DNA of 64,000 nt from Actinomycetota bacterium (GTDB taxonomy: Bacteria > Actinomycetota > Thermoleophilia > RBG-16-64-13), in NCBI GenBank assembly GCA_012523095.1, contig JAAYJE010000022.1:4784-68783 (forward strand), read 5' to 3'. Position 1 is the first letter of the stretch, and each line of letters begins with the position of its first letter. The notes under the pieces were generated by a model that saw nothing but the letters and a program-made list of their open reading frames with translations, was not told the DNA's origin and searched no databases. Shown here in pieces: positions 6,340 to 51,980 of the stretch. The translations under genes and the position numbers were made by a program.

Positions 6340-8157
6340 TCACCTCCCATGAAGACGCTCTTTCAACGCCTCAAGCTGCCCGCGGAGGGCCGTCGGTAAG
6401 CGGTCTCCGAACTCCTCATAATACTCAGACAGATCGGCGGCCTCTTGCTTCCAGGCCCCGACGTCGACCGTCAGCAGGGCCTCCAAGTCCGCCGCCGGCA
6501 GCTCTAGGCCGGAAAGATCGAGCGCCCCTGGAGCGGGCAGATTGCCGATGGGGGTCTTGACCGCCTGCCCGCCGCCTCCGACCCGCTCGAAGATCCACTT
6601 GAGCACCCGGCTGTTATCACCATACCCAGGCCACAGAAAATGGCCGTCCTCGCCCTTGCGGAACCAGTTGACGAAAAAGATGCGCGGCAGCTTCTGGGGG
6701 TCGGTGCGACCGGCCATCGACAACCAGTGCGCGAAATAGTCACCCATGTTATAGCCGCAGAAGGGCAGCATGGCGAAGGGGTCGTGGCGCAGGACGCCGG
6801 TCTTGCTCAAATTGGCGGCCGTGGTCTCCGAACCGGCCGCCGAGCCCATGAACACTCCGTGCTCCCAGTCGAAAGCTTCATAGACCAGCGGGACCGTGCC
6901 CGCCCGCCGTCCACCGAACAGGATGGCCGAGATGGGAACACCTGACGGGTTCTCCCAATCAGGATCGATCACCGGGCACTGTTCGGCCGGAGCCGTGAAC
7001 CGCGCATTGGGGTGAGCGGCCTTGCGATCGGAATCAGGCGTCCAGTCATCGCCCTCCCAGTCGATGAGGTGAGCAGGAGCCGGCACGCCCATGTCCTCCC
7101 ACCAGATATCGCCCTCGTCGGTAAGACCAGCGTTGGTGAAGATGCTGTTGCGCGTGAACGTCTCCATAGCATTGGGATTCGTGTCGTAGGAGGTCCCGGG
7201 AGCCACGCCGAAGAAACCCGTCTCGGGGTTCATGGCGTAGAGGCGGCCGTCCTCACCGATGCGCATCCAGGCGATATCGTCGCCCAGGCAGGTGACCTTC
7301 CAGCCCGGAAGAGTCGGCCGCATCATGGCCAAGTTGGTCTTGCCACACGCGCTGGGGAAGGCCCCGGCGATATACCTCTTCTCGCCCTCCGGCGACGTGA
7401 GACATAGGATCAGCATGTGCTCGGCCAACCAACCCTCCTTGCGGGCCAAGGCAGAAGCTATGCGTAACGCCAGGCATTTCTTGCCTAAGAGCGCGTTGCC
7501 GCCATAGCCCGAGCCGTAGGACCAGATGGAGGGATCGTCGGGGAAGTGGACGATGTACTTGTGGTTGGGATCACGTTCGCACGGCCAGGGAACGTCGCCC
7601 TGGAAGGGCTTGAGCGGCGCGCCCACCGAATGCAGGCAGGGGACGAACTCGCCATCGCTGCCCAGGGCCTCGAGCACCTTCGTGCCCACACGGGTCATAA
7701 TGGTCATGTTCGCGACCACGTACGCGGAATCGGTCACTTCGATGCCGATCTTGGAGAAGGGTGAACCGACCGGCCCCATGGAGAACGGGATGATGTACAT
7801 GGTCCGGCCCTCCATGCATCCATCGAAGATGGCGCACAACTTCCTCTTCATCTCCCGCGCCGGCGCCCAATTGTTGGTGGGTCCGGCCTCGATCTGATCG
7901 TTCGTACAGATGAAGGTCCTGTCTTCCACCCTGGCAACGTCGCTGGGGTGTGATCTGGCCAAGAAACAGTCGGGCCTGAGGGTGTCATTGAGGCGCGTGA
8001 AGGTACCGTGCTTCATCGCCACCTCACATATGTACCCATACTCCTCCGCAGAACCGTCGCACGTGTAGACGTTGTCCGGTTTGCAGAGTTGGACTACTTC
8101 CGTCAGCCAAGCCAGCAGTCTGCTGTGCTTTGTAAGCGTCTCAAACGCGGCCGCCAT
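6340..8157 (-). CDS. pckG: Phosphoenolpyruvate carboxykinase (GTP)
   Basis: 605 aa, full-length similarity to GTP-dependent PEPCK (kinase-1a and P-loop regions recognisable). Confidence 0.93.
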
Positions 8158-17924: not shown

Positions 17925-18389
17925 TTAGATACGACCTTCCTCACGCAGCCTCCTAGAGTCATTCAATACGGTGGCCGCGTGCCCCTTGGCGCCCACCCGT
18001 TGATAGGCTAACAGAACGTCTCCGTCCTTGCCGACGAGGACGGTATCACGCTCATGTGAACTCTCAGGTCCGCCCTTCAGCGTTCCGAAGGCCTGCCCGA
18101 TCGCCCTGTCTCGGTCGCTTACGAATGGGAACCGCAGATCGTATTTGTCCCGGAACTTCTGCAACCGGGCCACCGAGTCTACCGAAGCGCCGACTATCCT
18201 CACCCCCAGTGTCTCGAACTCCGGCACCAATCGGTTGAACTCAACCGCTTCCACTGTTCACCCCGGGGTCAGTGCCCGAGGAAAGAAGTACAGCACTACC
18301 GGTCCCGATTCGAGCAGTGCCCCGAGATCGACGTCACCGTCACTTCCGGACGCTACAAACAGCGGCGCTTTGTCACCTACCGCCAGCAT
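17925..18389 (-). CDS. BCP/PrxQ-type peroxiredoxin with in-frame TGA (candidate selenocysteine) at the peroxidatic Cys position
   Basis: ATG at 18389 (RBS GGAGGTG 6 nt upstream) encodes MLAVGDKAPLFVASG...VVLYFFPRALTPG. An in-frame TGA follows at 18260..18258, then TVEAVEFNRL... through to the stop at 17925. The ORF track shows only the part after the TGA (17925..18254). In Cys homologues this position is the catalytic C of the FYPKDDTPGC motif. Total 154 codons. Confidence 0.6.
18229..18250 (-). ncRNA. Candidate bacterial SECIS hairpin within the peroxiredoxin coding region
   Basis: mRNA AAGCGGUUGAGUUCAACCGAUU starts 8-11 nt after the UGA. The CGGUUGA/UCAACCG stem has a GU-containing apical loop, matching the spacing (about 11 nt) and loop features of E. 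coli fdhF-type SECIS elements. Confidence 0.4.
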
Positions 18390-18405
18390 CACTGCACCTC
18401 CTCGG

Positions 18406-18711
18406 TCACGCCTCTCTCCTACGCGGCTCAATAGGTCCGTGGATGCTCTCGTACTTCCTCAGGTTATCCGCCAGCGCCTCGACGATGTGCTTCATGTGAG
18501 CGGGGCCGGTCACCACCCGCGCGACCACCTGTCCACCCGGGCCCATGACCATGGCGAAGTCCATCACGAACTCACCGGCCGTATGATGGACCATCATGGT
18601 GTTGCAGTAGACGCCCCCTGCTATCGTCTCGGGTACCCGCAGCTTCAGTTCGCGCTGCTTGCGACCGCCGCCGCCGTTCCCCGGCGTCCTCTGCGGGTTC
18701 GTCGTCGCCAT
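18406..18711 (-). CDS. DUF3467-family protein (function unknown)
   Basis: 101 aa with the GGVY.N...EFVMDF pattern typical of DUF3467. An AGGAGGAGG RBS precedes it. Its stop is 16 nt upstream of the peroxiredoxin ATG. Confidence 0.6.
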   Translation of the reverse strand: MATTNPQRTPGNGGGGRKQRELKLRVPETIAGGVYCNTMMVHHTAGEFVMDFAMVMGPGGQVVARVVTGPAHMKHIVEALADNLRKYESIHGPIEPRRREA

Positions 18712-18863: not shown

Positions 18864-20321
18864 TCAATCTTCTCCCCGAGCCCGCGCGAAGCGACGCGCC
18901 CCATCCGCCACCGTCAGCCGTACCCGTCCGGTCAGGGTCTCGCCCAAGAACGCGCAGTTGCGACTCTTGCCCCTCAGCGTCTCGGGCGCTACCCGCCACC
19001 GTTCCTCGAGGTCGACGACGCAGAAGTCGGCGGGAGCCCCCTCTTCCAAGCGGGGCTCAGCGAGCCCCAAGACCCTGCAGGGCGCTCCCGACATAGCCTC
19101 CACGAGCCGCTCCAAGGACAGCTGCCCCGTCAGGACCAAACCGGTGTGGAGCGCAGCAAAAGCCGTCTCCAGCCCGGTCGTGCCGAAGAGGGCGTCCTCG
19201 ATGGGCACCTCCTTCTCCTGTGGAGCATGAGGAGCGTGGTCGGTACCGATACAGTCGACGGTCCCGTCGGCAAGGGCCGCCACCAGGGCGGCACGGTCCT
19301 CGGCGGAACGAATGGGCGGGTTGACCTTCAGGTTCTGGTCGAAACCTGTCAGCAGCTCGTCGGTCAACAGAAGGTGGTGAGGGGTGGCCTCGACGGTGAT
19401 GGGAAGCCCCTCCGCTTTCGCCTGCCGGACCAGCCTCACGCTGGCGGCTGCAGACAGGTGCTGGAAGTGTATGAGAGGCACCGCGGCCGCCGGAGGGCCG
19501 CTCGAGACGGCGCCGCCACCCGAAGCCGCGGCGACACCCGCAACCACACCGCCCCTCGTACCCCCCTGCCGCTTCTGCTCCGCATCGACGTAACGGACGA
19601 TCTCCAAGTCGCGGGCCAACGGGCCCGACTCGCAGGCGGCGGGCACTCCCCGCAAACCCAGTCGCGCGCTCCACCTGCCCTCGTGCATGACCCCGTCGAC
19701 AGACAGGCTCCTGTTCTCCAGATGGATCAGTAACGGTCGTCCGATCCCGCGAGTGTAACGTAACGCCTGAAGCAATAGATCCGCATCGGCGATAGGCCTG
19801 CCGTCGTCGGAGAAGGCGACCACTCCGGCGTCCGCCAGTTCGCGTATCTCGGCCAGCTCTTCACCTTTGAGACCCCTGCTCACGGCCCCCACCTGGCCCA
19901 CCCGGACCACGGCCTCCCTGGCCGCTTCGTCCAGGATCCAGGCGGCCACCGGGCCACAGTCCGCCACAGGATCAGTGTTGGCCATGGCCACCACCGCCAC
20001 GTAACCACCCGCCGCAGCGGCAAGCGGACCCGAAGTCAGATCCTCCTTGTATTCATGACCGGGCGTACGCAGATGGGCATGAGGGTCGACAAACCCAGGA
20101 AAAACCCAACAGCCGGCCAGGTCATCGAGTATCTCCACTTTCTCGGGCGCTCTCAACGCGTCGCCCCACCCAGCGATCTTGCCCTCTTCCACGAGTAGAT
20201 CTCCCACGAGGTCGACACCGTGTTGGGGATCGAACAGATGCACGGAAGGAATGACGAAAGTCTCGGGGGGCGCCGCCCGGCAGGTGAGCTTGGGCGCGGA
20301 AGGACGCGTGCTGGTGTCCAT
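18864..20321 (-). CDS. pyrC: Dihydroorotase
   Basis: Metal-binding DPHAHLR and DHAPH motifs. The start was set at MDTSTRP, after an AAAGGA RBS. It contains a Gly/Ala-rich insertion. Confidence 0.88.
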   Translation of the reverse strand: MDTSTRPSAPKLTCRAAPPETFVIPSVHLFDPQHGVDLVGDLLVEEGKIAGWGDALRAPEKVEILDDLAGCWVFPGFVDPHAHLRTPGHEYKEDLTSGPLAAAAGGYVAVVAMANTDPVADCGPVAAWILDEAAREAVVRVGQVGAVSRGLKGEELAEIRELADAGVVAFSDDGRPIADADLLLQALRYTRGIGRPLLIHLENRSLSVDGVMHEGRWSARLGLRGVPAACESGPLARDLEIVRYVDAEQKRQGGTRGGVVAGVAAASGGGAVSSGPPAAAVPLIHFQHLSAAASVRLVRQAKAEGLPITVEATPHHLLLTDELLTGFDQNLKVNPPIRSAEDRAALVAALADGTVDCIGTDHAPHAPQEKEVPIEDALFGTTGLETAFAALHTGLVLTGQLSLERLVEAMSGAPCRVLGLAEPRLEEGAPADFCVVDLEERWRVAPETLRGKSRNCAFLGETLTGRVRLTVADGARRFARARGED

Positions 20322-20363
20322 CCAAATTCCTTTCGGTCTCACGGGACTCGTTTAAAGGTCGAC

Positions 20364-36407: not shown

Positions 36408-37511
36408 CTAGTCTTTGTCGCGCAAGAACTTCGGGATGTCGAGGATATCGTCCTCCATCTCGAATGTGTGCGTCTTCGGAGGCAGCATCTCGGCCAGATC
36501 GACCGGCGGACGAGGCGCTTCGACCTCCGCGGGCCGTTCGACCCCCTGCCTCGCCTGCATCCGTTCCTTGTCGAATCCGGTGGCGATAACCGTCACCCGC
36601 ACCTGATCGCCCAGCGATTCGTCGATGACCGCGCCGAAGATGACGTTGGCATCGGTGTCGGCCGCGTTCGCGATCACCCCCGCCGCCTCGTTCACCTCGA
36701 ATAGACCCATGTCGAGCGGACCGCTGATGTTGAGCAGGATGCCGGTGGCCCCCTCGATGGACGACTCCAGGAGGGGCGACGATATGGCCGTCTTCGCAGC
36801 CTCCACTCCCCGATTCTCACCACTGGCGAGACCGATTCCCATGAGCGCCGAACCGGCGTCGCTCATGATGGTCCGGACGTCGGCGAAGTCGAGGTTGATG
36901 AGTCCTGGAACGGTTATGAGGTCCGTGATGCCCTGCACGCCCTGCCGAAGGACATCGTCCGCCACCCTGAAGGCCTCGATGATGGAGGTGCGCTTCTCCA
37001 CCACCTGCAGCAATCGATCGTTCGGGATGATGATAAGGGTGTCGACCTTCTTGGATAGGGCCTCGATGCCCGACTCGGCCTGACTGGCCCGTTTCCTGCC
37101 TTCGAAAGTGAATGGCTTAGTGACCACGCCCACCGTGAGCGCTCCTATTTCGCGAGCCAGCTCGGCGATGACCGGAGCGCCGCCGGTACCGGTGCCGCCG
37201 CCCTTGCCGGCCGTGACGAACACCATATCGGCGCCCTTCAACACCTCGCGGATATCGTCCCGGCTCTCCTCCGCCGCTTCGCGACCCACCTCTGGATTCG
37301 CTCCGGCGCCGAGGCCTTTAGTGACCTTGCCGCCTATGTGCAGTTTCACATCGGCATCGCACATCAGCAACGCCTGCGCGTCGGTGTTGACCGCGATGAA
37401 CTCGACTCCCTTGAGCCCCGCGTCCACCATGCGGTTGACGGCGTTGGTGCCGCCCCCGCCCACCCCAACGACCTTGATCACCGCAAGGTAGCCGGATCCC
37501 GTGTCGTTCAT
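36408..37511 (-). CDS. ftsZ: Cell division GTPase FtsZ
   Basis: GGGTGTG tubulin signature and NTDAQAL motif. 367 aa. Confidence 0.97.
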
Positions 37512-37647
37512 GGCACTCGAACCTCCAAACTCCTCTGATCACAGGACTCCAACTTGACCCTTTGCGAGAAGCCCTCAACTGACGCTTCACACTCCGACCA
37601 GTACGTGGTCCTATCGTCGATTCCTGCTGAGACGCAAGATAGCACTT

Positions 37648-38421
37648 TCATTTCGCTTTCACCGCCAGTTTGTCCGCCACCGTGGCATCCACATACTCAA
37701 GCGGCGTCCCATCCCTCAAGTATTGCTCGATGATCTGCAAAGCGCCCTTCAACTTCTGGTCGAGCTTCGTCGGGTCGCCGAGCCGCAGTTCGGCACCTTC
37801 TTTCAACACGATGGTGAGCGCGCCGGATGGGGATACCCAGATCTCCTTCGCGGACGCCAGATGTCTGTTGGCGCTCTCATCCGCCATGATGACCGCCAGG
37901 GGAAGCGCCTGCGCAACGATCTCAGAGACTTGCTGCCCGGCGACAGGGGTCTCGTCCGTCGATGGCACGACCAGGGGCAGACCCGCCCCTGCAGGCGGAA
38001 CGACCACCTCGAGCGCGCGACCGTTATCGGCCACCACCCAGACGGCGCCGTCGCCGGCTTTGAGGCGGGCGATCGGTTCATACTCTTCCAAACGCACGTC
38101 CAAGGTGTTAGGGAAGCGACGGTAAACCTCGGCCGAGCGCACATAGGGCAGCGAGCGCAGGGCTTCTTCAAGATCCGCCGTCGATAGACGGAACAGGCTT
38201 TCTCCGATAGCTTCCGACGCTACCCGAGACACTTCTTCCTGAGCGATACGCTCCGTGGCGGTGGCCGTGACCGTCCGCACGGCAAAGACATCGGAGGAAC
38301 GCAACCAGACGAACAGGACCGCGGCCGCCACCAGAAGGCCGAAAACGAAGACCAGACCCGCGCGTCGCCTGCCGCGCTGCCGGCCCACCGCTCGGCGTCG
38401 GTCGCGGATCCGACTATTCAT
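37648..38421 (-). CDS. ftsQ: Cell division protein FtsQ/DivIB (POTRA domain)
   Basis: Single TM followed by POTRA-like domain. The start was set at MNSRIRD. Synteny places it between murB and ftsZ. Confidence 0.7.
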   Translation of the reverse strand: MNSRIRDRRRAVGRQRGRRRAGLVFVFGLLVAAAVLFVWLRSSDVFAVRTVTATATERIAQEEVSRVASEAIGESLFRLSTADLEEALRSLPYVRSAEVYRRFPNTLDVRLEEYEPIARLKAGDGAVWVVADNGRALEVVVPPAGAGLPLVVPSTDETPVAGQQVSEIVAQALPLAVIMADESANRHLASAKEIWVSPSGALTIVLKEGAELRLGDPTKLDQKLKGALQIIEQYLRDGTPLEYVDATVADKLAVKAK

Positions 38422-39400
38422 GAATGCCAGGCGGCCCCTGGGACGCGTCAGAGGATGAATCCCACGGGAAGCGCGCACCGAGCAGCCTGACCTCCGGCTC
38501 CAACAGCACGTTGTTCGCCCGCTTGACTTCCTGTCTCATGAGATGCATCAAGGCAAGCACATCCGCAGTAGTCGCGTCTCCCAGGTTGACCAAAAAATTG
38601 GCGTGTACCCTGGATATTTCGGCGTCGCCCCGGCGCACTCCTTTTAGGCCGGCGGCGTCGATCAACCGGCCTGCTCCCCCACCGGACGGGTTCATAAACG
38701 CGCAGCCGAAAGTGCGCACCCCTTGGGGATGAGACCGGCGGCGCCGCTGTAGGATCGAACGATGATGCTTCATGACCTCCGCCGAGTCGCCGGGGGTGAG
38801 CGTCAAGCGAACGGCGGTGATCACCGCACCGGCCGGCAGGTGGCAACGACGATAGCTCCAGGTTAGATCCGCAGCACGCATCCAAGAAGCGCCGCGGCCG
38901 TCCGCCAGTTCGACTTCCTGGACGACCTCGGCCATGGACGACCCATAGGCGCCGGCATTCGTGGCGATAGCTCCACCCACCGAACCCGGGATGCCGCAGG
39001 CGAACTCCAAGCCCGTCAGGCCGGCTTCGCCGACCACTATAGCCAGCCTGGGGAGCAGGGTGCCTGCCCCAACGGTGACGGTCACCGGTCCCTCCACAGA
39101 ATCCGGCTCCAGGGGCATGCCCTCGACATAATGGAAGCTGTCGTCGAGTTTCACCACCACCCCCGGGTATCCCTCGTCGGCGACCAAGAGATCGGTGCCG
39201 GCGCCCAGACAGAACCACGAGGCGCCGCCATCAAGGATCTTGAGCGTGGCCACAAGCGCGGGTGTATCGACCACGGTCACCATCACCGCGGCCTTGCCCC
39301 CCGTACCGATAGTAGTGAAGGGAGCCATGGGTGCATCGACCCAGATGCGTGAGCCATCGACGGCACGCAGTGCTTGGATCAGGTCGGAAGAAGCCGTCAT
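38414..39400 (-). CDS. murB: UDP-N-acetylenolpyruvoylglucosamine reductase
   Basis: FAD-binding PCMH domain plus the MurB C-terminal domain. 328 aa. Confidence 0.88.
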   Translation of the reverse strand: MTASSDLIQALRAVDGSRIWVDAPMAPFTTIGTGGKAAVMVTVVDTPALVATLKILDGGASWFCLGAGTDLLVADEGYPGVVVKLDDSFHYVEGMPLEPDSVEGPVTVTVGAGTLLPRLAIVVGEAGLTGLEFACGIPGSVGGAIATNAGAYGSSMAEVVQEVELADGRGASWMRAADLTWSYRRCHLPAGAVITAVRLTLTPGDSAEVMKHHRSILQRRRRSHPQGVRTFGCAFMNPSGGGAGRLIDAAGLKGVRRGDAEISRVHANFLVNLGDATTADVLALMHLMRQEVKRANNVLLEPEVRLLGARFPWDSSSDASQGPPGIHE

Positions 39401-39412
39401 ATCGATACCAGG

Positions 39413-40816
39413 TCAGGCAGTGGCCAGAAAACGCTCGCCCACCCGGTGGATGTCACCCGCCCCCAATGTGAGCACCAGATCGCCCGGCGTCACGATCTGC
39501 TCAAGGTACTCGACTATAGAGCCCAATCGGGGCAGGTAGGCCACCGGCTTCTTGACGGAGTTCCTCAGCATGCTGTCGACGATCAGTTTGCCGCTCACCC
39601 CGGGACGCGGGGCTTCCCGAGCCCCGAACACGTCGGTGACGACCGCCACATCCGCCTCCATCAGTGCATCTGCGAACTCCGCGTGGAGAAACTCGGTACG
39701 TGAGTACAGATGAGGCTGAAAGACCGCGATCACCCGTGACCATTCACCCTCCTGCGCCGCACGCAGGGTGGCCAGCAGTTCTGTGGGATGGTGGGCGTAG
39801 TCGTCGACCACCGTTACTCCATCGCGTTCGCCTATACGCTGGAATCGCCGGACCGCCCCGTTGAAGGTGTTCAGCGCCGCGACAACCACGGAGGTGTCTA
39901 TCCCGAGCTCGCTGAGAGTCGCGAAACAGGCGAGAGCGTTCAGCACATTGTGCCTCCCAGGCGCCTGAAGAACTACCGAGGCCAGCTTCCTCCCACCGCT
40001 CCATACCTCGAAGCTACTGCCGGGATGTCCGGCCACGACCTCCCGCGCCTGGTACGCAGCCGAGGAATCGAACCCGTACGAACAGGTCCTGCAACCTGAC
40101 TTGACCGCCAGCGCCGTAACGCGGGGTTCTTCTCCGCAGTAGACGAGCAGTCCGTGGTCGGGGAGACGGCTCAGGAAGGTCTCGAAGACACGCTCCACAT
40201 CCTCGATGTGCAGGTAGTGGCTGTGGTGGTCCAGCTCCACATTGGTGAGCACGGCTATCTCCGGCCTGAGCAGCAGAAACGACCTGTCCGACTCATCGGC
40301 TTCGCACACCACGAAGGGCCCTTCACCGTGACGGGCGTTCGAGCCCAGATCGTTGAGTTCGCCGCCGACCAGGAAAGTGGGATCGAAACCGCCGTCGACC
40401 AACGCCCGGCTGATCATCGAGGTGGTGGTGGTCTTGCCGTGCGTGCCGCAGACGGCGATGCCGCGGGCGCAGTCCATCAGCCAGGCCAATGCTTGGGCGC
40501 GTCTGACGACGAGGATGCCGCGCCTCCGGGCCTCCTGCAACTCCACGTTGTGCGCGGGGATGGCTGATGAGATGACCACCACGTCCGGCTGATCCAGGTT
40601 CGACGCTCTGTGGCCGATCTTGACCGGCGCTCCGGCGTCCTCCAGAAGGGCGGTGTAGCGAGAAGGTTTGAGATCGGACCCGGTGACCTGATAGCCACGC
40701 TTGTGCAGCACCAGAGCGATGCCGCTCATCCCTGCGCCCCCAATCCCGATGAAATGGAAGCTGCGCAGCCACTCAGGGGCGGCGATGCTCGAGGTGTCGA
40801 TGGCTGGTTCAGTCAT
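39413..40816 (-). CDS. murC: UDP-N-acetylmuramate--L-alanine ligase
   Basis: Mur ligase with N-terminal GIGGAGMSG and the central GTHGKTTT P-loop. Confidence 0.93.
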   Translation of the reverse strand: MTEPAIDTSSIAAPEWLRSFHFIGIGGAGMSGIALVLHKRGYQVTGSDLKPSRYTALLEDAGAPVKIGHRASNLDQPDVVVISSAIPAHNVELQEARRRGILVVRRAQALAWLMDCARGIAVCGTHGKTTTTSMISRALVDGGFDPTFLVGGELNDLGSNARHGEGPFVVCEADESDRSFLLLRPEIAVLTNVELDHHSHYLHIEDVERVFETFLSRLPDHGLLVYCGEEPRVTALAVKSGCRTCSYGFDSSAAYQAREVVAGHPGSSFEVWSGGRKLASVVLQAPGRHNVLNALACFATLSELGIDTSVVVAALNTFNGAVRRFQRIGERDGVTVVDDYAHHPTELLATLRAAQEGEWSRVIAVFQPHLYSRTEFLHAEFADALMEADVAVVTDVFGAREAPRPGVSGKLIVDSMLRNSVKKPVAYLPRLGSIVEYLEQIVTPGDLVLTLGAGDIHRVGERFLATA

Positions 40817-41912
40817 AGTGTTCCCCGGTACGCCGGGCGATCAATTCTACTACGACATCGGCTATGCGGACAGCCGCGTCCGGTCTGGCCAGTCGCAGAG
40901 CGGCTTCACTCATGCGGCGGTTGGTGTGAGGATCGAGCAGGGTGGCCACGGCCTCAGCCAGATCCTTAGCGGTCAGATCGGCGTCCGTGATCATGAGGGC
41001 GGCACCCGCCTCGGCGACCGTGCGGGCATTGACCGTCTGGTGGTCACCCGTAGCCAACGGATAGGGTACCAGCAGAGACGGCACCCCACGAGCTAAGACC
41101 TCCGATACCGACCCGCCCGCCCTCCCCACCACCGCGTCGGCGGCGGCCAACGCCAGAGGGAAATCGTCCAGGAAGGCGTGGATCTGATAAGCCGCGTTGG
41201 CATCCGGACCGCTTAGGGCCTCTGCCACACGGGCATGTTCGCGCTCTCCCGTGATATGTACGATCTGGAACGGCGTGGCGGTCCGTGCGAACGCGTCCAC
41301 CGTTGCCTCGTTCAGGGTATGCGAACCCAAGCTCCCACCGAACACCAGAAGCACGTCCCTGGCCGGGTCCAAACCGAAACGAACCAGACCTTCATCGCGG
41401 GTCGCCGAGAGTAACGCCGGCCGCAGGGGCCGACCTGTATAGATATACTTCTCACCCGTCCGGCGTGGATCGGGAAAAGAGAGACACACTTTGTCGACCA
41501 TGCGACTTAGGATACGGTTGGTCCAACCCATGTAGGAGTCCATCTCCACGGCCACGGTCGGGACCCTGCCCGCCGCAGCCTCGGCCACCACCGGGCCCGA
41601 GGCATAGGCTCCCACGCCGATCACGCAGTCGGGACGGAAGGTGCGGAGCAGCCTCCAAGCGTCGACCCCCGCCACTGGGATAGACCCCAGGGTGCGCAGG
41701 GTGGAGAGCCCCAGTCTGCGCTCGAAGCCGCGGATGCGGACGGCATACAGGGGGTAGCCGGCCCGAGGGACCAACTCCCTTTCCATCCCCCGCCCTGTGC
41801 CGCAGAATGCTACCTCGAGACTCCGGCTCGACAGGACGTCAGCGAGGGCTAGGGCGGGCACCACGTGCCCCGCCGTACCGCCGCCCGCGATCAATACGCG
41901 TGACATTCTCAT
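40809..41912 (-). CDS. murG: UDP-GlcNAc:lipid I N-acetylglucosaminyltransferase
   Basis: GGGTAGHVVPALA N-terminal motif. 367 aa. Confidence 0.9.
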   Translation of the reverse strand: MRMSRVLIAGGGTAGHVVPALALADVLSSRSLEVAFCGTGRGMERELVPRAGYPLYAVRIRGFERRLGLSTLRTLGSIPVAGVDAWRLLRTFRPDCVIGVGAYASGPVVAEAAAGRVPTVAVEMDSYMGWTNRILSRMVDKVCLSFPDPRRTGEKYIYTGRPLRPALLSATRDEGLVRFGLDPARDVLLVFGGSLGSHTLNEATVDAFARTATPFQIVHITGEREHARVAEALSGPDANAAYQIHAFLDDFPLALAAADAVVGRAGGSVSEVLARGVPSLLVPYPLATGDHQTVNARTVAEAGAALMITDADLTAKDLAEAVATLLDPHTNRRMSEAALRLARPDAAVRIADVVVELIARRTGEHYD

Positions 41913-43125
41913 ACCTCACTGCTGGAGACGGCGCCGGCCGGGCAGGCGCGCGTCTGGCGACTGCCAGGATCACTCCTACGGCCATCAGCATCGCCACCAG
42001 GCTGCTACGGCCGTAGCTGATGAAAGGTAAGGGTACCCCAGTCAGAGGCAGCGCGCCGATGACGCCGCCGATGTTGACGACGGCCTGCAGCGTCACCAGC
42101 ATGCCGCAACCGGCTATCAGATATTTGCCCATGGGGTCCGAACAGCGCCTGGCGAGTTGCCAGCAGGCGAACGCGAACACGCCGAAGAGCACCAGCACCG
42201 ATCCGGCTCCCACAAGGCCGAATTCTTCACCCAGGATGCTGAAGATCATGTCGGTATGCGCTTTGGGCAGGTACTGGAACTTCTGGACGCTCTCCCCCGG
42301 CCCCACTCCAATCCAGCCGCCCCTGCCGAGCGCAACCATAGACTGCCCCAACTGGTATGCCGCTCCCTGAGGATCAGACGACGGATCGAGGAAGGAGAAG
42401 ACCCGGCTCATACGCACGTGACTCGTGAAGACGAGAGCCATAGCCGCCGCTGCTCCTGTGCCGGTCAGGGCCAACCAATGCGTGGCCTTCATTCCCCCAA
42501 GCCACAGCATTCCCATCACCAACCCGGCCATTATTATGGCGGTCCCCAGATCGCCCTCAAGCGTGACCATCACGCACATGCCTAAGCCGATCGCGCCGAA
42601 GGGCCACATGAACGCCTCGAAATCACCAGCCCCCCTCCGACGCCTCGAAAGAAGATGAGCTCCGAGCAGCACCAGGGCCAACTTGGCCAACTCCGACGGC
42701 TGCAGCGTGAAGAGACCGATCTTGAGGTAGCTCCTGGCCCCGCCGGCCATCTGGCCGAACTGAGGGACGTGCACCAGGATAAGCAGAAACCCCACTAGAG
42801 CAAGAAACGCTACGGAGATCACCCGCAGCCTGCGATAATCGAGACGCCACAGGGCCACGAGCAGCACCAGGCCCACAGCCGCCGCGATGCCTTGCGCGCG
42901 GACGTAGCCGTACTTGGACCCCCCGTTGACGCCTTCCGCCACCGATACCGACAGCATCATGCACATGCCGGCCACAAGCAGAATCAGCGTGGTCACCCAT
43001 ACCAGATGGTAGACCGCCGGAGAGGAGTCCCTGAGCGTGACCGTCGCCCGGGGTCGCGGATAGGGAGCGGGCGCCTTGGCGTCCTCGGCGCCTGGACGTT
43101 GCGTGCGGGCCGTCGCGGAGCTCAT
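41839..43125 (-). CDS. ftsW: Peptidoglycan glycosyltransferase FtsW (SEDS family)
   Basis: 10-TM SEDS protein with the SEDS periplasmic loop motif (LPKAHTDMIFSILGEE). Its 3' end overlaps the murG start by ~70 nt. Confidence 0.88.
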   Translation of the reverse strand: MSSATARTQRPGAEDAKAPAPYPRPRATVTLRDSSPAVYHLVWVTTLILLVAGMCMMLSVSVAEGVNGGSKYGYVRAQGIAAAVGLVLLVALWRLDYRRLRVISVAFLALVGFLLILVHVPQFGQMAGGARSYLKIGLFTLQPSELAKLALVLLGAHLLSRRRRGAGDFEAFMWPFGAIGLGMCVMVTLEGDLGTAIIMAGLVMGMLWLGGMKATHWLALTGTGAAAAMALVFTSHVRMSRVFSFLDPSSDPQGAAYQLGQSMVALGRGGWIGVGPGESVQKFQYLPKAHTDMIFSILGEEFGLVGAGSVLVLFGVFAFACWQLARRCSDPMGKYLIAGCGMLVTLQAVVNIGGVIGALPLTGVPLPFISYGRSSLVAMLMAVGVILAVARRAPARPAPSPAVRYENVTRIDRGRRYGGARGARPSPR

Positions 43126-44567
43126 AGCGTGTCGCCGGCCAGTCGGCGGACAAGCGCGCAGAAATGCAGACCACGCTCTTCGAAGTCTTCGTACTGGTCG
43201 AAGCTGGCACAGGCAGGGGCAAGGAGCACCACATCGCCGGCCGTCGACTTCCGTGCCGCGAGCCGAACGGCGGCCTCCAGATCACCACATACCAGAGGCT
43301 CGAGCGCCCCTTGGACCTTCTCCTCGTCTCGGACTTCGCGGAAGGCCGTCTCGATGAGCGGACTCGCCTCACCGATAAGGTACACGGCTTCACAGCCCCG
43401 CGCGCAGGCACGGGCCACAGGTCGGTAATCGGAAGCTTTGTCGCGTCCTCCCAAGATCAGATGCGTCCTTTCTGGATACGCCTTCAGAGCGGTGAGCGTA
43501 GCCTCCACGTTGGTAGCCTTACTGTCGTTGACATACGTCACCCCGGCGACCATTCCTGCCCTCTCGAGCCGGTGAGCGACCCCAGCGAAGGAGCCCAGAC
43601 CCTCGGCTACAACACTTGGATCAAGCCCGCGGGCCAGGGCCGCGGTGCCCGCCGCGAGACAGTTCTCCAAGTTGTGGACGCCGGGCAAACGGATGTCGCT
43701 CACCCTGATCGACCGCTCCTCTTCAAGGTAGACCCACCCGTCCTCTACCCAGGACACCAGCTGCCGTCCGCCCGTGCGGGTCGTGGTTGAGAAGAAGGCC
43801 ACACGAGGGCCGTCGGGGCGGCCGGCCAACTCAAGGCCAAGCCCGGCCACGAAGGGATCAGACAAGTTCAACACAGCTACGTCCCCCGCATGCTGTCCGG
43901 CGAACAGGTTGGCCTTGCATGCCAGGTAGCATCCCATGGAGCCGTGACGGTCCAGATGATCGGGCGTGAGGTTGAGGAAGACGCCCACCGTGGGCCGAAA
44001 TGCGTGCACATCCTCCAGTTGAAAACTCGACACCTCCACCACCAGCTCCTCGTCGGGCGCGATCTCACCGGCCACCGAGGTTACGGCGATCCCGATGTTG
44101 CCGAGCACTCGCGCCGGTCGCCCGGCCACGGTGAACAGATGGCCCAGGAGCGCCGTGGTGGTGGTCTTACCGTTGGTGCCGGTGACCGCATCGAAGGGAT
44201 TCGGGAACAGGGCGTACGCGAGCTCGAGCTCGCTCCACACCGGCACGCCTCGTTGCCTCGCCCACACCACCGGCCCCGCCTCTCCAGGGACCCCGGGACT
44301 CTTCACCACCAGATCGGGCTCCGGCCACGAGACGTCGAGTGTGCCCTCAGACTGAAAGCGGACGCCCACGCCGGTCGCGGCGGCCGGCGTGGGCAGTAAC
44401 GCCGGTTCGCGCCGGTCGCTCAAAATGACGTCGCGTCCCAACCGAGCAAGGGCGAGTGCCGCGCTGGTGCCGGAGCGACCCGCCCCCAGGACCAGCACCC
44501 GTCTCACCGAGTCTGGAAGTCCCGCGCCTCCATCAGCGACTCCAGGAGGCCCATCGCCGTGACCCAT
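43122..44567 (-). CDS. murD: UDP-N-acetylmuramoylalanine--D-glutamate ligase
   Basis: Mur ligase P-loop GTNGKTTTT. The ORF track extends to 44945, but the start was set at ATG 44567, immediately after the mraY stop. The N-terminal VLVLGAGRSG Rossmann motif follows. Confidence 0.85.
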   Translation of the reverse strand: MGHGDGPPGVADGGAGLPDSVRRVLVLGAGRSGTSAALALARLGRDVILSDRREPALLPTPAAATGVGVRFQSEGTLDVSWPEPDLVVKSPGVPGEAGPVVWARQRGVPVWSELELAYALFPNPFDAVTGTNGKTTTTALLGHLFTVAGRPARVLGNIGIAVTSVAGEIAPDEELVVEVSSFQLEDVHAFRPTVGVFLNLTPDHLDRHGSMGCYLACKANLFAGQHAGDVAVLNLSDPFVAGLGLELAGRPDGPRVAFFSTTTRTGGRQLVSWVEDGWVYLEEERSIRVSDIRLPGVHNLENCLAAGTAALARGLDPSVVAEGLGSFAGVAHRLERAGMVAGVTYVNDSKATNVEATLTALKAYPERTHLILGGRDKASDYRPVARACARGCEAVYLIGEASPLIETAFREVRDEEKVQGALEPLVCGDLEAAVRLAARKSTAGDVVLLAPACASFDQYEDFEERGLHFCALVRRLAGDTL

Positions 44568-44572
44568 CACGA

Positions 44573-45553
44573 TCAACCTCCCGAGATGCGTGTGTTGCTG
44601 AGGTAGTAGAGGGCGAACCCTGCTGCGGCCAGTATGGCGGAGATGATCCAGAACCTCACGATGATCTTCGTCTCCGACCAACCTTTGAGCTCGAAATGGT
44701 GGTGGATGGGGGCCATCAGGAAGACCCGCCGGTGGAATACCCGGAAGCTGAATACCTGGATCGTGACGCTCAAGGCTTCCAGCACGAACAGACCCCCTAC
44801 CAGGAAGAGAAGGATCTCCATGTTGGTGGCGATGGCCATGCCTGCCACTGCTCCCCCCAGCGCCAGCGAGCCGGTATCCCCCATGAAGACCGTCGCCGGG
44901 TGGGTGTTGTACCAGAGAAAGCCGACACAGGCGCCCGTGAAACACGCGCCTAGGGTGGCCAGATCATACTTCCCTTGGAGAAAGGCGATCCCCGCGTAGG
45001 CGAACAGAGCGATCCCCGCAGTGCCGGCGGCCAGGCCGTCCAGTCCGTCGGTGAGATTGACTGCATTGGTGAAACCGACGATGAAGAGGAAGGCGAAGAT
45101 GTAGTAGAACCAGCCTATCTCCAAACCGGCGCGCACGAACGGCACGCTCAGCCGCGTATCGACTCCCCCGTACTTGGTGGCGAGCCACAAGGCGACGCCG
45201 AACACCGGGAGCATAAGGAGCAGCTTGAATCTGGCACTCAGACCCAAAGAGCGTTGCCGCCACTGACTCATGAAGTCGTCGGCGAAGCCGATCATTCCGC
45301 CGCCCAGTGCCAAGACGATGACCACCAGGGTCGGCACCGTCTTGGTGGCGAATATCAAATAAGGGATGAGCGTAGCCGCTAAGAGCAGCAGACCACCCAT
45401 GGTAGGCGTACCTGCTTTGACGCTGTGAGCCTTGGGGCCCAGTTCGCGGATGTTCTGCCCGATCCCCCGTCGACTCAGCCAACGTATGAAACGGGGGCCG
45501 GCCACCATCCCGATAACCAACGCCACGAGGGTGGCCGACAGCACTTTCAGCAC
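44573..45553 (-). CDS. mraY: Phospho-N-acetylmuramoyl-pentapeptide transferase
   Basis: 326 aa, 10 TM helices, with DD..D and NxxNxxDGxDGL motifs. Confidence 0.95.
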   Translation of the reverse strand: MLKVLSATLVALVIGMVAGPRFIRWLSRRGIGQNIRELGPKAHSVKAGTPTMGGLLLLAATLIPYLIFATKTVPTLVVIVLALGGGMIGFADDFMSQWRQRSLGLSARFKLLLMLPVFGVALWLATKYGGVDTRLSVPFVRAGLEIGWFYYIFAFLFIVGFTNAVNLTDGLDGLAAGTAGIALFAYAGIAFLQGKYDLATLGACFTGACVGFLWYNTHPATVFMGDTGSLALGGAVAGMAIATNMEILLFLVGGLFVLEALSVTIQVFSFRVFHRRVFLMAPIHHHFELKGWSETKIIVRFWIISAILAAAGFALYYLSNTRISGG

Positions 45554-47070
45554 CGGCGCGTCTCCTTAGTCCCGTTCTCCGTCTCGTCACCAGGCCCGCG
45601 TTCCACAACGAGACGATCCTCATCCGTCGGCCGACGCTCGGCCACGAGCCGTCGCACCATGGTCTCGAGGCGCATGCTCCGCGACGCCTTGAAGAGCACT
45701 ATGTCGCCCGGCTCCAAAGCAGCCGACACCGATGATGTTTCTTCGGCCGAGGTCACATGTCCTGCCCTCCAGTCGACGTCCCCCGTCTTGCCTTCCCACC
45801 ATCTCTGGAAACCTGCGACCGTGAGCGCCGACAGCTCACCGACTCCCCACAGCGCCCGTACCCCGGCTCTGCCCGCGTACTCCCCGATCTCGAAGTGGTA
45901 ACGCTCCGCCTCCGGCCCCAGTTCGAGCATATCGCCCAGCACCGCGACCGCCCTACCCCCCAACAGCCCGGCCATGTCCACGAGGTCGTCCAGAGCGGCA
46001 CGCACCGCGGCAGGATTAGCGTTGTAGGTATCGTCGATGATGGTCAGCCCAGGCAAACGAACAACATCGCCCCTACCATCACTCAACCTCGCCATGGCGA
46101 TCCCCGCCGCGCACTCGGCGACCGGCAGGCCCGCGGCATAACAGGCCGCCGCGGCTGCAGTGGCATTCTCAACCTGATGTCGAGCCATACGGCGGGTCTT
46201 GACCTCGACCTGACCTCCGGGCCATATGAGACTCAGCACGTGCTCCGCTTCCCCGGCCGCTGCGCGCAACGAACCTCTCACATCGGCGGCACACCCAGGT
46301 CGATCCAAGCCAAAACGCACCACGGGGCGCTCAGCCAAGCCGATATATGGCTGCAAAACAGAGCATTCCGCTGGAATCACGAGGGGAGCACCTCGCCGCA
46401 GGCCCCCTGCAAGCTCAGCCTTGGCTTTAGCGATATTGTCCAACGACCCCAGAAGCTCAAGGTGAACTGGATGGATGTTGGTTATCACTCCAATGTCAGG
46501 TTCGGTGACCTCAGCAAGCGCGGCAATCTGGCCGAGGCCGCGCATGCCCATCTCCACCACAACCGCCTCGGTATCGGGGGTGACGGCGAGAAGCGTGAGC
46601 GGCACTCCCACTTCGTTGTTCTGGTTCGCGGCCGTCATCACCAAACAGCGGACTCGGCCCACCATGGCGCCCAAATAGTCCTTGGTGCTGGTCTTGCCGA
46701 CGCTTCCGGTCACAGCGAAAACGAGGGCGTCGGACTTGCGACGCACCTCTCGAGCCAGCGCCCAGAGCGCCATCAACGTGTCATCCACTTCATAGACGGA
46801 CGCCGTACCGACGTCCGGGCGGCCCCCGAGGCGGCCGCCTCTGCCTATCTCGCGACCACCCCAGCTCTCGCGCGCCACAACCACCCCCGACGCGCCGGCG
46901 GCAAAAGCCTTCTCGACAAAGTCGTGGCCGTCAAGGCGTTCACCTTTGAGCGCTACGAACAGATCGCCCGGCGTCAGTGTCCGTGTGTCGATGCTGATGC
47001 CGAGAACCGCAGCCGACAATGCCTGCAGTCCCAGCGCCCTTCCGGCCTCTTCCGCGGTTAGGGGGATCAT
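45547..47070 (-). CDS. murF: UDP-MurNAc-tripeptide--D-alanyl-D-alanine ligase
   Basis: Mur ligase family with GSVGKTSTK P-loop. 507 aa. Confidence 0.9.
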   Translation of the reverse strand: MIPLTAEEAGRALGLQALSAAVLGISIDTRTLTPGDLFVALKGERLDGHDFVEKAFAAGASGVVVARESWGGREIGRGGRLGGRPDVGTASVYEVDDTLMALWALAREVRRKSDALVFAVTGSVGKTSTKDYLGAMVGRVRCLVMTAANQNNEVGVPLTLLAVTPDTEAVVVEMGMRGLGQIAALAEVTEPDIGVITNIHPVHLELLGSLDNIAKAKAELAGGLRRGAPLVIPAECSVLQPYIGLAERPVVRFGLDRPGCAADVRGSLRAAAGEAEHVLSLIWPGGQVEVKTRRMARHQVENATAAAAACYAAGLPVAECAAGIAMARLSDGRGDVVRLPGLTIIDDTYNANPAAVRAALDDLVDMAGLLGGRAVAVLGDMLELGPEAERYHFEIGEYAGRAGVRALWGVGELSALTVAGFQRWWEGKTGDVDWRAGHVTSAEETSSVSAALEPGDIVLFKASRSMRLETMVRRLVAERRPTDEDRLVVERGPGDETENGTKETRRC

Positions 47071-48674
47071 GTCGGCCGACCTCGATCACGCCGTCGGGCT
47101 CGAAGGTCACGTTCAAGCTCCTGCCGGCGGGCCAGCAACAACTCTCTGGCTATCTGCCGGTCGTCGAAGGGAGTCGTCTCGGTTGCGAACTCCTGGCCGA
47201 GTTCATGACCTTTCCCCAGAATCATGACTACGTCGCCGCCCTCCGCTCGGTCAAAGGCCTCCGCGATGGCGAGCCGCCGGTCGGGCTGCACGACGGCGGC
47301 AGCCGGGCGATCCAGGCCGCCTACTATCTCGGCGATGATGGAGAGGGGATCTTCGCTGCGAGGATTGTCCGATGTGACCACCACCAGGTCGGCCGCGCTC
47401 TCCGCCTCCCTGCCCATGAGTGGCCGTTTGAGCCTATCACGGTCGCCTCCGCAGCCGATCACCGCGATGAGTCTGCCACGAGTGATACCCCGGGCAGCCC
47501 GGAGAACGTTCCGGACAGAGTCGGGGGTATGCGCATAGTCCACCAGAACCAAGAAGTCCTGCCCGGCGTTCACCGATTCCATGCGTCCGGGCACGCCCCG
47601 GAACGTGCGCATGCCGACGAGCATCTCGTCTAGGTCCAGGCCGAGCCCCAGCCCCACACCGAGGGCGGTCAGTGTGTTGCCCACATTGAAGTCCCCCACC
47701 AGTGAGGTGGCCATCTCCAGCCGCTGCTCGCCACAAGCGGTGGGATCGGGAACGACTCGCCCGCGGGCGCACTTCAACGCCGTGCCTCTTACCACCAGGA
47801 CGCCCCTGATACCGGCGGCATCCTTCTGGTATTCGCTCATCTCCAAGTCGGCAGGGCCCCATTCCGATATCTCCGACCGACTGGAGAAACCTATCACTCG
47901 CTCTCTCGGGCACCGGAAGGCCAGCTCACGCCCATGGGGGTCGTCCACGTTGATGACCGCGACGGTCAAGCCGGTGGCAAAATCCGCCTCCAGGAACAAC
48001 CTGCTCTTGGCCGCGAAGTAGTCTTCCAGCGTCTTGTGGTAGTCGAGGTGGTCCTGGGTCAGATTGGTGAAGGCGACGGCGCGGAAGGCGATATCGGCGA
48101 CGCGGCCCAGGTCGAGCGCGTGAGACGACACCTCCATGACAACCGCCAGGTCGCCCGCATCCGCCATGAGGGCCAGGTCGCGTTGAATATCGAGCGCCTC
48201 CGGAGTCGTCCGGCCCGCAGGGAGCGTCCGACCCCCTATCCGTCGTTCGACGGTTCCCATGAGTCCGCAACTCAGACCCGCGTGCTCGAGCAGATGAGCG
48301 ACCAAGAAGGCCGACGTGGTCTTGCCGTTGGTTCCGGTGATGCCGACTGTGAGCAGACGCCTGCCGGGGTGTCCGTAGAAAGTGGCGCCCACCGGCCCCA
48401 TGGCCGCCCGCACCGATGGAACCACGACCTGGGCCACCGGCAAACCCAGAGGGCGCTCCACGCACAAAGCCGTCGCGCCCCGGGCCACCGCGTCCGGAGC
48501 GAAGTCATGCCCATCGCGAACGAACCCGGGTACGCAGAAAAACAGACTGCCAGGACCCGCCTGATCGCTGCGGTAGGTGAGTGAGGTGATGCCAACGTCA
48601 CCGGCGCCCGCCAGGCGCCAGCCCTCGACACCGGCGAAGAGGTCACAGAGTCTCACAGGGGAGGATTCTACCAT
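47067..48674 (-). CDS. murE: UDP-MurNAc-L-Ala-D-Glu--2,6-diaminopimelate ligase
   Basis: Mur ligase with GTNGKTT P-loop and a C-terminal DNPR-like region. 535 aa. Confidence 0.9.
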   Translation of the reverse strand: MVESSPVRLCDLFAGVEGWRLAGAGDVGITSLTYRSDQAGPGSLFFCVPGFVRDGHDFAPDAVARGATALCVERPLGLPVAQVVVPSVRAAMGPVGATFYGHPGRRLLTVGITGTNGKTTSAFLVAHLLEHAGLSCGLMGTVERRIGGRTLPAGRTTPEALDIQRDLALMADAGDLAVVMEVSSHALDLGRVADIAFRAVAFTNLTQDHLDYHKTLEDYFAAKSRLFLEADFATGLTVAVINVDDPHGRELAFRCPRERVIGFSSRSEISEWGPADLEMSEYQKDAAGIRGVLVVRGTALKCARGRVVPDPTACGEQRLEMATSLVGDFNVGNTLTALGVGLGLGLDLDEMLVGMRTFRGVPGRMESVNAGQDFLVLVDYAHTPDSVRNVLRAARGITRGRLIAVIGCGGDRDRLKRPLMGREAESAADLVVVTSDNPRSEDPLSIIAEIVGGLDRPAAAVVQPDRRLAIAEAFDRAEGGDVVMILGKGHELGQEFATETTPFDDRQIARELLLARRQELERDLRARRRDRGRPT

Positions 48675-48774
48675 CAGGTCACCTCCCGGTTCGAGGGCCC
48701 TAAGGGTCCGGAGGAAGACCGGCGCTTCGCGTTCATCGGCTCGAAGGGCCCGGCGGCCACAGCGGCCGTCTCAT

Positions 48775-50457: not shown

Positions 50458-51026
50458 CTGCCGCTGATGGTAGGCTCACCTTCCGCCACTGGTGGACCCG
50501 GCTCAGCCTCCACGTAATGTACGTAGACGGCCGGACCCAGACCGAGTCGAGTCGCCTGTTCGGCAACCCTCTCAGGAGACGATAGCGCAGATATCTGAGC
50601 GGACAAGGCCGAGTTCGCCGCGGCCAACTCCTTCTGCTCAGACTCCAGCCGGCCGATCGTGGATTCTAGATCAGTCGAGGCTGAGTGGATCAACATCGGA
50701 GCGATGATGCAGGCCGCCACCAGAGCCCCGATCATCGCCAAAGCCATCACGATGAGGCCCCAGCGAGGTTGTTGCCGCCGGGCGACCAGCCGCAGTCGGG
50801 GCAGCGGCCTGGGAGCAACAACGGTGTCGCGCGACGGCTGCAGCACCCGAGCGGTGGCTTCACGGCCGTAATAGCGGGAAGAGTCCATACGGGCGGTCAC
50901 CTGTGTGCGAGCGGTGGGCCGCGTCTCTCCGAAACCCTTCGTCCCGCTTCTCCGTGAGGCCGACGAGGCACGGACGCTCTCTTCCCAATCCGCCATCCAA
51001 GCCAAACGCGCGATGCTGGTCATCAC
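50454..51026 (-). CDS. ftsL: Cell division protein FtsL-like (septum formation initiator family)
   Basis: Single TM followed by a short coiled coil. It sits between rsmH and ftsI. The start is uncertain. Confidence 0.5.
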   Translation of the reverse strand: MMTSIARLAWMADWEESVRASSASRRSGTKGFGETRPTARTQVTARMDSSRYYGREATARVLQPSRDTVVAPRPLPRLRLVARRQQPRWGLIVMALAMIGALVAACIIAPMLIHSASTDLESTIGRLESEQKELAAANSALSAQISALSSPERVAEQATRLGLGPAVYVHYVEAEPGPPVAEGEPTISGR

Positions 51027-51949: not shown

Positions 51950-51980
51950 GGCCATCTCCGTCACGAATGAGGCTGCCGCG

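Follow-up and report, generated by a model that had tools for sequence, protein, structure and literature searches.

A probable bacterial selenocysteine insertion hairpin within the coding region of a BCP/PrxQ-type peroxiredoxin gene from an uncultured member of the Actinomycetota

Introduction

The closest described counterparts of the element reported here are the consensus bacterial selenocysteine insertion sequence (bSECIS), the hairpin of Escherichia coli fdhF and the family of peroxiredoxins that contain selenocysteine (Sec). The element itself is a small hairpin in a peroxiredoxin gene, immediately downstream of an in-frame UGA and carried on the minus strand of a 64,000-nt stretch of DNA (hereafter the window) from an Actinomycetota bacterium (assembly GCA_012523095.1, contig JAAYJE010000022.1, positions 4,784 to 68,783). 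As set out in the Fig. 2 legend of PMC13188914, the bSECIS consensus allows an apical loop of 3-9 nt and an upper stem of 4-16 bp; loop position 1, position 2 or both must be G, as a rule with G or U coming next; the distance from the UGA to the loop is 16-37 nt, and the minimum free energy (MFE) is -7.5 kcal/mol or lower. In E. coli fdhF, where the U of the UGA is counted as nt 1, the upper hairpin is 17 nt long (nt 15-31) and follows a gap of 11 nt; its bulged U17 is essential, and G23 and U24 lie in the loop (PMC8659212). Sec peroxiredoxins with a TxxU motif (PF00578) form an established bacterial selenoprotein family (PMC1794560, Table 1; PMC13188914, Table 1), in which cysteine and Sec have been interconverted repeatedly (PMC1794560; PMC13188914).

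In this work we argue that the window hairpin is a bSECIS located within the coding region of a Sec-containing peroxiredoxin of the bacterioferritin-comigratory-protein (BCP)/PrxQ type, a reading to which we assign a probability of roughly 0.87. It is supported by the register of the hairpin, covariation, codon constraint, the contrast between Sec and cysteine forms, the existence of independent Sec lineages and agreement with the bSECIS consensus; binding by SelB and insertion of Sec would follow by analogy with the established bacterial Sec pathway. The window hairpin falls within the consensus on all four counts, and it lies directly 3' of a UGA that is aligned with the redox-active cysteine of homologues. 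The consensus, which is the model of the bSECISearch program (Zhang and Gladyshev 2005, as given in PMC13188914), was applied by hand.

A peroxiredoxin gene interrupted by an in-frame UGA

The peroxiredoxin frame comprises 154 codons, one of them the in-frame UGA, and extends on the minus strand from the start codon ATG at 18389 to the stop codon TAA at 17927..17925 (Table 1). The read-through product matches AhpC-TSA (PF00578, E = 4e-27) and Redoxin (E = 5e-19) in Pfam, and its top NCBIfam match is the thiol peroxidase PRK09437, with a score under the cut-off of that model. Solved BCP structures align with E = 1e-22, and residue 44 falls on the cysteine of their PGCT motif. The active site around the UGA reads ..YFFPRALTPG-U-TVEAVEF.., so that the product combines an AhpC/TSA domain with the PxxxTxxU motif of Sec peroxiredoxins (P37-R-A-L-T41-P-G-U44). 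Identity with PrxU itself (NF040737) was ruled out, as the product scored 27.5 bits against an NCBIfam equivalog cut-off of 270.

Twenty-one distinct orthologues and six distant homologues have TGA at this codon, where the other homologues have TGC or TGT, and in the orthologue alignment the frame 3' of the UGA shows conserved amino acids and variable synonymous sites. Since TGA terminates 23 of the 37 long open reading frames (ORFs) in the window and is the commonest ordinary stop there, a general reassignment of UGA is excluded. The UGA at 18260..18258 is thus, on the evidence of these sequences, very probably a sense codon, and the two short ORFs that flank it would be parts of one 154-residue selenoprotein. 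The window product contains no cysteine at all. The Sec orthologues are likewise free of cysteine and the cysteine orthologues carry the peroxidatic cysteine alone; as neither form has any other cysteine, the enzyme would be a "1-Sec" BCP/PrxQ without a resolving cysteine.

Table 1. Coordinates of the peroxiredoxin gene and of the proposed bSECIS elements in the window.
Feature	Position	Strand	Basis or remark
Probable selenoprotein gene, BCP/PrxQ-type peroxiredoxin	17925..18389	-	Translation, Pfam, NCBIfam, structure alignment
In-frame UGA, codon 44, at the peroxidatic cysteine position	18258..18260	-	Read as selenocysteine
10-nt spacer from UGA to hairpin, ACAGUGGAAG	18248..18257	-	Synonymous sites vary freely among orthologues
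Hairpin 5' arm, CGGUUG	18242..18247	-	MFE structure; orthologue pairing
Apical tetraloop, AGUU	18238..18241	-	Same in all 21 orthologues
Hairpin 3' arm, CAACCG	18232..18237	-	MFE structure; orthologue pairing
Possible extended element enclosing the apical hairpin	18215..18260	-	MFE fold; tentative

Shape and register of the hairpin

Downstream of the UGA the mRNA reads ACAGUGGAAG CGGUUG AGUU CAACCG, followed by AUU at 18231..18229. The hairpin had first been proposed in an annotation made by a model from the letters alone (the sequence-only reading), and its sequence and its coordinates on the minus strand were correctly given there. RNAfold produces six base pairs with an AGUU loop in both the MFE and the centroid structures, and in a 121-nt context the six stem pairs have probabilities of 0.75-0.78; the earlier expectation that the hairpin would be favoured over other folds is therefore borne out (pair probability about 0.78). 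Other details need to be amended. A stem of 6-7 bp with a GU loop had been described, of which the 6-bp stem with AGUU is retained, whereas a seventh pair would leave a loop of 2 nt and is sterically impossible. The stem was said to begin 11 nt after the UGA, which is right in that its first base is the 11th nucleotide, but the gap itself measures 10 nt. The two additional A-U pairs across a G.A mismatch do exist in the window, but they are not conserved among orthologues.

The whole hairpin spans positions +11 to +26 after the UGA (16 nt), with the loop G at +18 and the loop U at +19/+20. Its 5' arm is made up of the G of Ala48 GCG, Val49 GUU and the G of Glu50, and its 3' arm joins the last base of Phe51 (C), the Asn52 codon AAC and the first two bases of Arg53 (CG). 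Outermost in the stem, the C-G pair 18247/18232 is limited to the window and to a subclade of four orthologues (the NG subclade: L008, L016, L055 and L060). In the window the sixth pair is supplied by codon 53, here Arg CGA (18231..18233, alignment columns 34-36), while most orthologues have Gln CAA at this codon and a stem of 5 bp. The 5-bp core that is present in all orthologues starts at the 12th nucleotide after the UGA. Across the orthologues the stem measures 5-9 bp, the short hairpin being lengthened to 6-9 bp in the NG subclade.

The MFE fold also suggests a larger element around the apical hairpin, in which a lower helix would pair (U)GAAC (18260..18256) with GUUC(G) (18219..18215) and a 3-bp helix would pair UGG (18253..18251) with CCG (18224..18222). 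Together these predicted helices would place the UGA inside the lower stem, as in fdhF. The columns of the lower helix encode UGA-Thr and Phe and are invariant for that reason, so that they speak neither for nor against this pairing.

A hairpin of this kind in this register is rare. When a qualifying hairpin is defined as a Watson-Crick stem of 6 bp with a loop of 3-6 nt and a G early in the loop, such a structure begins at +10..+13 after 7 of the 1742 TGA triplets in the window (0.4%) and after 0.3% of all window positions.

Conservation, covariation and codon choice

Comparative sequences came from 136 related loci, assembled from a scan of species-representative genomes, a scan of metagenomes and the contigs encoding cysteine orthologues (n = 8). 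The Sec orthologue set consists of 21 distinct TGA-containing sequences with 69-90% amino-acid identity, drawn from metagenome-assembled genomes (MAGs) labelled Gaiellales, Actinomycetota or "Actinobacteria bacterium RBG_16_64_13" and from bioreactor, sediment and soil metagenomes. All Sec peroxiredoxin genes examined have a hairpin here: these 21 sequences of the clade keep that of the window, and six from three other phyla have their own at the same place. Conservation in orthologues was a check proposed by the sequence-only reading. In four otherwise conserved orthologues from long-read MAGs (L009, L013, L014 and L016) frameshifts put the translation partly out of frame; indels introduced during assembly are a more probable cause than loss of gene function to pseudogenes.

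In the 21-sequence alignment every one of the 105 cells of the core stem GGUUG/CAACC (five pairs) is base-paired. Compensatory substitutions, which the earlier annotation had proposed to look for, were found at three of the five core pairs, in seven cells in total: a G-C to C-G change in L008, L016, L055 and L060, a G-C to A-U change in L008 and L055, and a U-A to C-G change in L008. Neither the covariation score nor the percentage paired was reached by any of 500 column shuffles, and when the 3' arm is slid by 1-3 nt pairing falls from 77% to 18-44%. Some of the compensations in these four sequences required residues to be replaced in concert (V to I, N to D and Q to G). At the codon level, Val is replaced by Ile (AUC/AUU) while the Asn codon AAC turns into Asp GAU or into its synonym AAU, and Ala GCG becomes GCC together with the replacement of Gln by Gly. 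Compensations that require paired amino-acid replacements indicate that the RNA structure constrains the protein sequence.

Codon choice within the hairpin is similarly constrained. The Val49 codon is GTT in 19/19 orthologues, while GTT accounts for 9 of the 298 other Val codons in the same genes (3%) and for 9.3% of those in long window ORFs. Glu50 supplies the loop G as its third base and is encoded by GAG in 21/21 orthologues; Phe51 is TTC in 21/21 and Asn52 is AAC in 18/19. At adjoining codons the synonymous variation is nearly saturated (entropies of 0.9-1.9 bits per codon). Gln53 is encoded by CAA in 14 of 16 Sec orthologues, although CAA makes up 19% of the Gln codons in the window, and it is mostly CAG in cysteine orthologues. 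When codons 45-57 are recoded synonymously with the codon usage of the window, 2.8% of the recodings give this hairpin.

Selenocysteine forms, cysteine forms and independent lineages

All 27 distinct Sec sequences, as against 21/99 cysteine sequences, have a hairpin that agrees with the consensus (Fisher p = 1e-14), where the test called for a perfect stem of at least 5 bp, a loop of 3-9 nt with G in loop position 1 or 2, a distance of 16-37 nt from the codon and a hairpin energy of -4 kcal/mol or lower. The contrast between Sec and cysteine homologues that the sequence-only reading had proposed as decisive was therefore found, and the hairpin is under selection in the Sec forms and relaxed in the cysteine forms. 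Among homologues that keep Glu50, the Sec forms have 24 GAG and no GAA while the cysteine forms have 45 GAG and 28 GAA (Fisher p = 1.4e-4). High-GC cysteine homologues with the identical V/I-E-F-N peptide (L081, L095, L100, L114, L121, L130 and L133) use GUC or AUC and do not pair.

Nine close cysteine orthologues are known to us from this sample; they have 62-74% identity and share the same DUF3467 neighbour wherever upstream sequence exists. In six of the nine the hairpin has been lost (L130 with GUC, L133 with AUC, and L134, L135, L136 and L014). Residue 49 is V or I in the Sec forms and can also be L, R or F in the cysteine orthologues. In a rough neighbour-joining tree some cysteine forms make up a clade placed between Sec clades, and others stand as single tips inside Sec clades (L129 adjoins L002, and L134 adjoins L004/L053). 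This is the pattern to be expected if Sec and its SECIS were ancestral in the clade and the hairpin decayed after conversion of Sec to cysteine. A different structure was observed in the cysteine homologues L080, L093, L096, L099 and L101 (peptide TEAIEFREVKSEFD), which share a perfect 11-bp hairpin with a 9-nt loop, GAAGUGAAA, located within the coding region at +14..+44 after the cysteine codon and with energies of -9 to -12 kcal/mol.

The distant Sec lineages have hairpins of their own. Those of the Caldilineaceae (L042; CUCGCGG-GUU-CCGCGAG, starting at +11) and of the Dormibacterota (L045-48; GACCGA-GUU-UCGGUC, starting at +12) have stems unrelated to that of the window, and yet their triloops place GUU at +18..+20 as in the window. 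In the Acidobacteriota sequence L027 a 6-bp stem starts at +16 and carries the loop CGUGACC. The UU of the loop originates from a Phe codon that is conserved in nearly all homologues examined, and the G is the third base of the codon before it. The distance from the UGA to the loop is 16-17 nt in 26 of the 27 Sec sequences and 21 nt in L027.

Weight of the evidence and proposed mechanism

Several observations weigh against a bSECIS function. The stability of the hairpin is unexceptional in comparison with shuffled or recoded sequence: the 49-nt fold has z = -1.16 against dinucleotide shuffles, and the native 39 nt fold at -8.5 kcal/mol against a mean of -10.7 for synonymous recodings, which fold better because the codons usual in this genome, with its 64% GC, are richer in G and C. 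What is unusual is this particular hairpin in this register, and with stability unremarkable the argument rests on register, covariation and codon constraint. All of the double changes fall within the one four-sequence subclade and thus represent few independent events; the hairpin is retained in three of the nine close cysteine orthologues (L129, L131 and L006); in the Gln-Leu part of the clade the same 5' arm can pair in another way that precludes the short hairpin; and the window hairpin lacks the bulged U on which the E. coli fdhF element depends. NCBIfam scans of the 30 longer window ORFs showed housekeeping genes only, with no SelA, SelB or SelD, and ARAGORN found no tRNA-Sec, indeed no tRNA at all, in the 64-kb window or in the flanks of 27 related loci; selA, selB and selD were not found in those flanks either. 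At gathering thresholds no Rfam family matched the window, and with E up to 10 the sole match over 18100..18400 was an irrelevant ffh small RNA on the other strand; this carries little weight, as no family of any kind reached its threshold and none was confirmed to model bacterial SECIS elements. A crude scan of the window for other selenoproteins with a UGA followed by a hairpin gave none that was convincing, but it is uninformative, as its over-strict filter on GC content at third codon positions missed even the peroxiredoxin gene.

If the hairpin is a bSECIS as we propose, its action can be pictured by analogy with the known bacterial pathway. As the ribosome nears the UGA at codon 44, the C-terminal domain of SelB would bind the apical stem-loop 11-26 nt downstream, with its 5-6 bp and an AGUU loop that exposes G and U. 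SelB carrying Sec-tRNA(Sec) and GTP would in this way be tethered as a ternary complex beside the A site, and through that tethering release factor 2 would be outcompeted. Sec would then be inserted at the peroxidatic position and translation would run on for 110 codons.

Alternative explanations

A quite unlikely variant of the proposal is that the element is still a bSECIS but that the form bound by SelB is a longer hairpin, the short one being a competing or intermediate conformer. In this form (A)GCGGUUG would pair with CAAYUGCU (columns 18-25 with 34-41) around an 8-nt loop, AGUUCAAC, that opens with A-G-U at +17..+19, which is compatible with the consensus and leaves G and U at the same distance from the UGA. 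The pairing is formed in 86% of cells across the 21 Sec orthologues, against 16-62% in slid controls, reaches stems of 8-12 bp in L001, L007, L010, L012 and L054, and exists as a compensated 10-bp version in the cysteine orthologue L135; the retention of the infrequent CAA at Gln53 in 14/16 Sec orthologues also fits it. Its covariation is not significant, however, as the percentage paired was reached by 61/500 shuffles and a single cell shows a double change, and it is broken in precisely the NG subclade in which the short form is lengthened. In the window it amounts to six pairs, three of them wobble, while the short form has a probability of 0.78, and the distant Sec lineages show simple short hairpins only.

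Both pairings might also matter. In a two-state SECIS, which we regard as unlikely, GGUUG would pair either with CAACC under the AGUU tetraloop or with the repeated CAAYU in a stem of 8-12 bp under the AGUUCAAC loop, and the switch would tune Sec insertion against termination. Such an arrangement, if true, would account for the fixed rare Gln CAA codon and for the conservation of both pairings.

It is very improbable that the hairpin has no RNA function and arises as a side effect of the chance self-complementarity of GUU GAG UUC AAC, the codons of the conserved peptide A-V-E-F-N(Q/R). Stem and loop do consist wholly of codons for residues that are conserved, the loop UU derives from the Phe kept in nearly all peroxiredoxin homologues examined, the overall folding energy is unexceptional, and cysteine homologues with the same peptide (L072, L110, L129, L131 and L006) also form the hairpin. 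This explanation has nevertheless been largely refuted by the codon and covariation data: few synonymous recodings yield the hairpin (2.8%), the rare GUU is fixed in 19/19, the same-peptide cysteine homologues of high GC content do not pair through their GUC or AUC codons, the amino-acid changes in the stem come as compensating pairs, and residue 49 is V/I only in Sec forms yet can be L, R or F in cysteine orthologues.

That the UGA is not Sec at all, but either a true stop in a split or decaying gene or a codon at which the hairpin stimulates read-through independent of selenium, with Trp or Cys inserted by a near-cognate tRNA, is hardly credible. In its favour, no Sec machinery was found in the window, and annotated genes stop or begin at this TGA (one pipeline rendered it as W). 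Against it, 27 distinct sequences from four phyla have TGA at exactly the catalytic residue, and the frame is unbroken and shows purifying selection before and after it. Moreover, most ordinary stops of the window are TGA, an enzyme with Trp in place of the peroxidatic residue would be inactive, and Sec peroxiredoxins with TxxU are already an established bacterial family (PMC1794560; PMC13188914).

Genomic context and annotation

Directly upstream of the peroxiredoxin gene lies an ORF of 101 aa (18406..18711, minus strand), a putative DUF3467 gene. A DUF3467 gene is also found upstream in L130 and L132-L135; it accompanies Sec as well as cysteine orthologues and overlaps the peroxiredoxin start in some loci. 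This adjacency suggests an operon. The window has a GC content of 63.7% and its context is one of housekeeping genes, among them fmt, carbamate kinase, PEPCK (8157..6340), glutamate dehydrogenase, pyrC (20342..18864) and pyrB, transaldolase/transketolase (tkt/tal), an RluD-like gene, the PcrA helicase and proA/proB, together with a dcw cluster at 36408..52147 with ftsZ, murB, murC, ftsW, murD, a penicillin-binding protein gene (PBP) and rsmH.

About 90 of the best 120 protein clusters are calls of 85-111 residues that start after the TGA. The truncated clusters, which are among P0004, P0012 and P0015-P0101, are named "peroxiredoxin Q/BCP" or "redoxin domain-containing protein", and one of them, P0004, is the gene of the window itself (109 aa, 100% identity), on a 72.5-kb contig of the Joint Genome Institute (JGI). 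With about 90 of 120 clusters truncated in this way, the clade of this probable Sec peroxiredoxin is widespread in Actinomycetota of soil, sediment and bioreactors and is systematically mis-annotated. In the case of L132:301-765 (P0013) the JGI protein has a W at the active site while the DNA has TGA and does not translate into that protein, which indicates that the source pipeline translated this codon under another genetic code.

The practical value of these results lies in the correction of annotation; the mechanism is a known bacterial one, to which no new one is added. The clade would also amount to a natural experiment in which a SECIS in the coding region constrains the choice of codons and amino acids (V/I49, N/D52 and Q/G53) and decays after Sec has been replaced by cysteine.

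Comparison with known systems

Measured against the bSECIS consensus, the window hairpin is typical in its loop of 4 nt, its stem of 5-6 bp and its loop sequence A-G-U-U, while its distance of 16 nt from UGA to loop sits at the extreme lower bound. The energy limit is passed in the window, with -8.1 kcal/mol for 22 nt (+9..+30) and -14.2 kcal/mol for 49 nt, whereas the minimal hairpin of most orthologues has -4.4 to -5.9 kcal/mol and needs flanking pairs to pass.

With the E. coli fdhF element the window hairpin shares its place within the coding sequence just downstream of the UGA, a small loop that exposes G and then U, a conserved 5-bp core that begins at nt 15 after an 11-nt gap, and the predicted ability of the UGA to pair in a lower helix. 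It differs in its length, 14-16 nt instead of 17 nt, and in the position of G and U, which are at nt 21/22 rather than at nt 23/24. The fdhF loop is GGUC and that of the window is AGUU; the 5' arm of fdhF opens with GGUUG, as does that of the window, probably by coincidence. The match to fdhF asserted by the sequence-only reading therefore survives as a general resemblance but is looser than claimed: there is no bulged U, the hairpin has 16 and not 17 nt, and the exposed G and U are 2 nt nearer to the UGA. The window element would accordingly be one that acts like the fdhF hairpin while falling outside the fdhF-type subtype.

As for the protein, we found nothing relevant in the literature on the use of Sec in Thermoleophilia or Gaiellales, nor on Sec-PrxQ specifically. 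With the family of Sec peroxiredoxins, for example PrxU of Eubacterium acidaminophilum, the window protein has in common the PF00578 domain and Sec in place of the peroxidatic cysteine of the PxxxTxxU motif; it differs from PrxU in belonging to the BCP/PrxQ branch, in being free of cysteine and in coming from uncultured Actinomycetota represented by Gaiellales-like MAGs.

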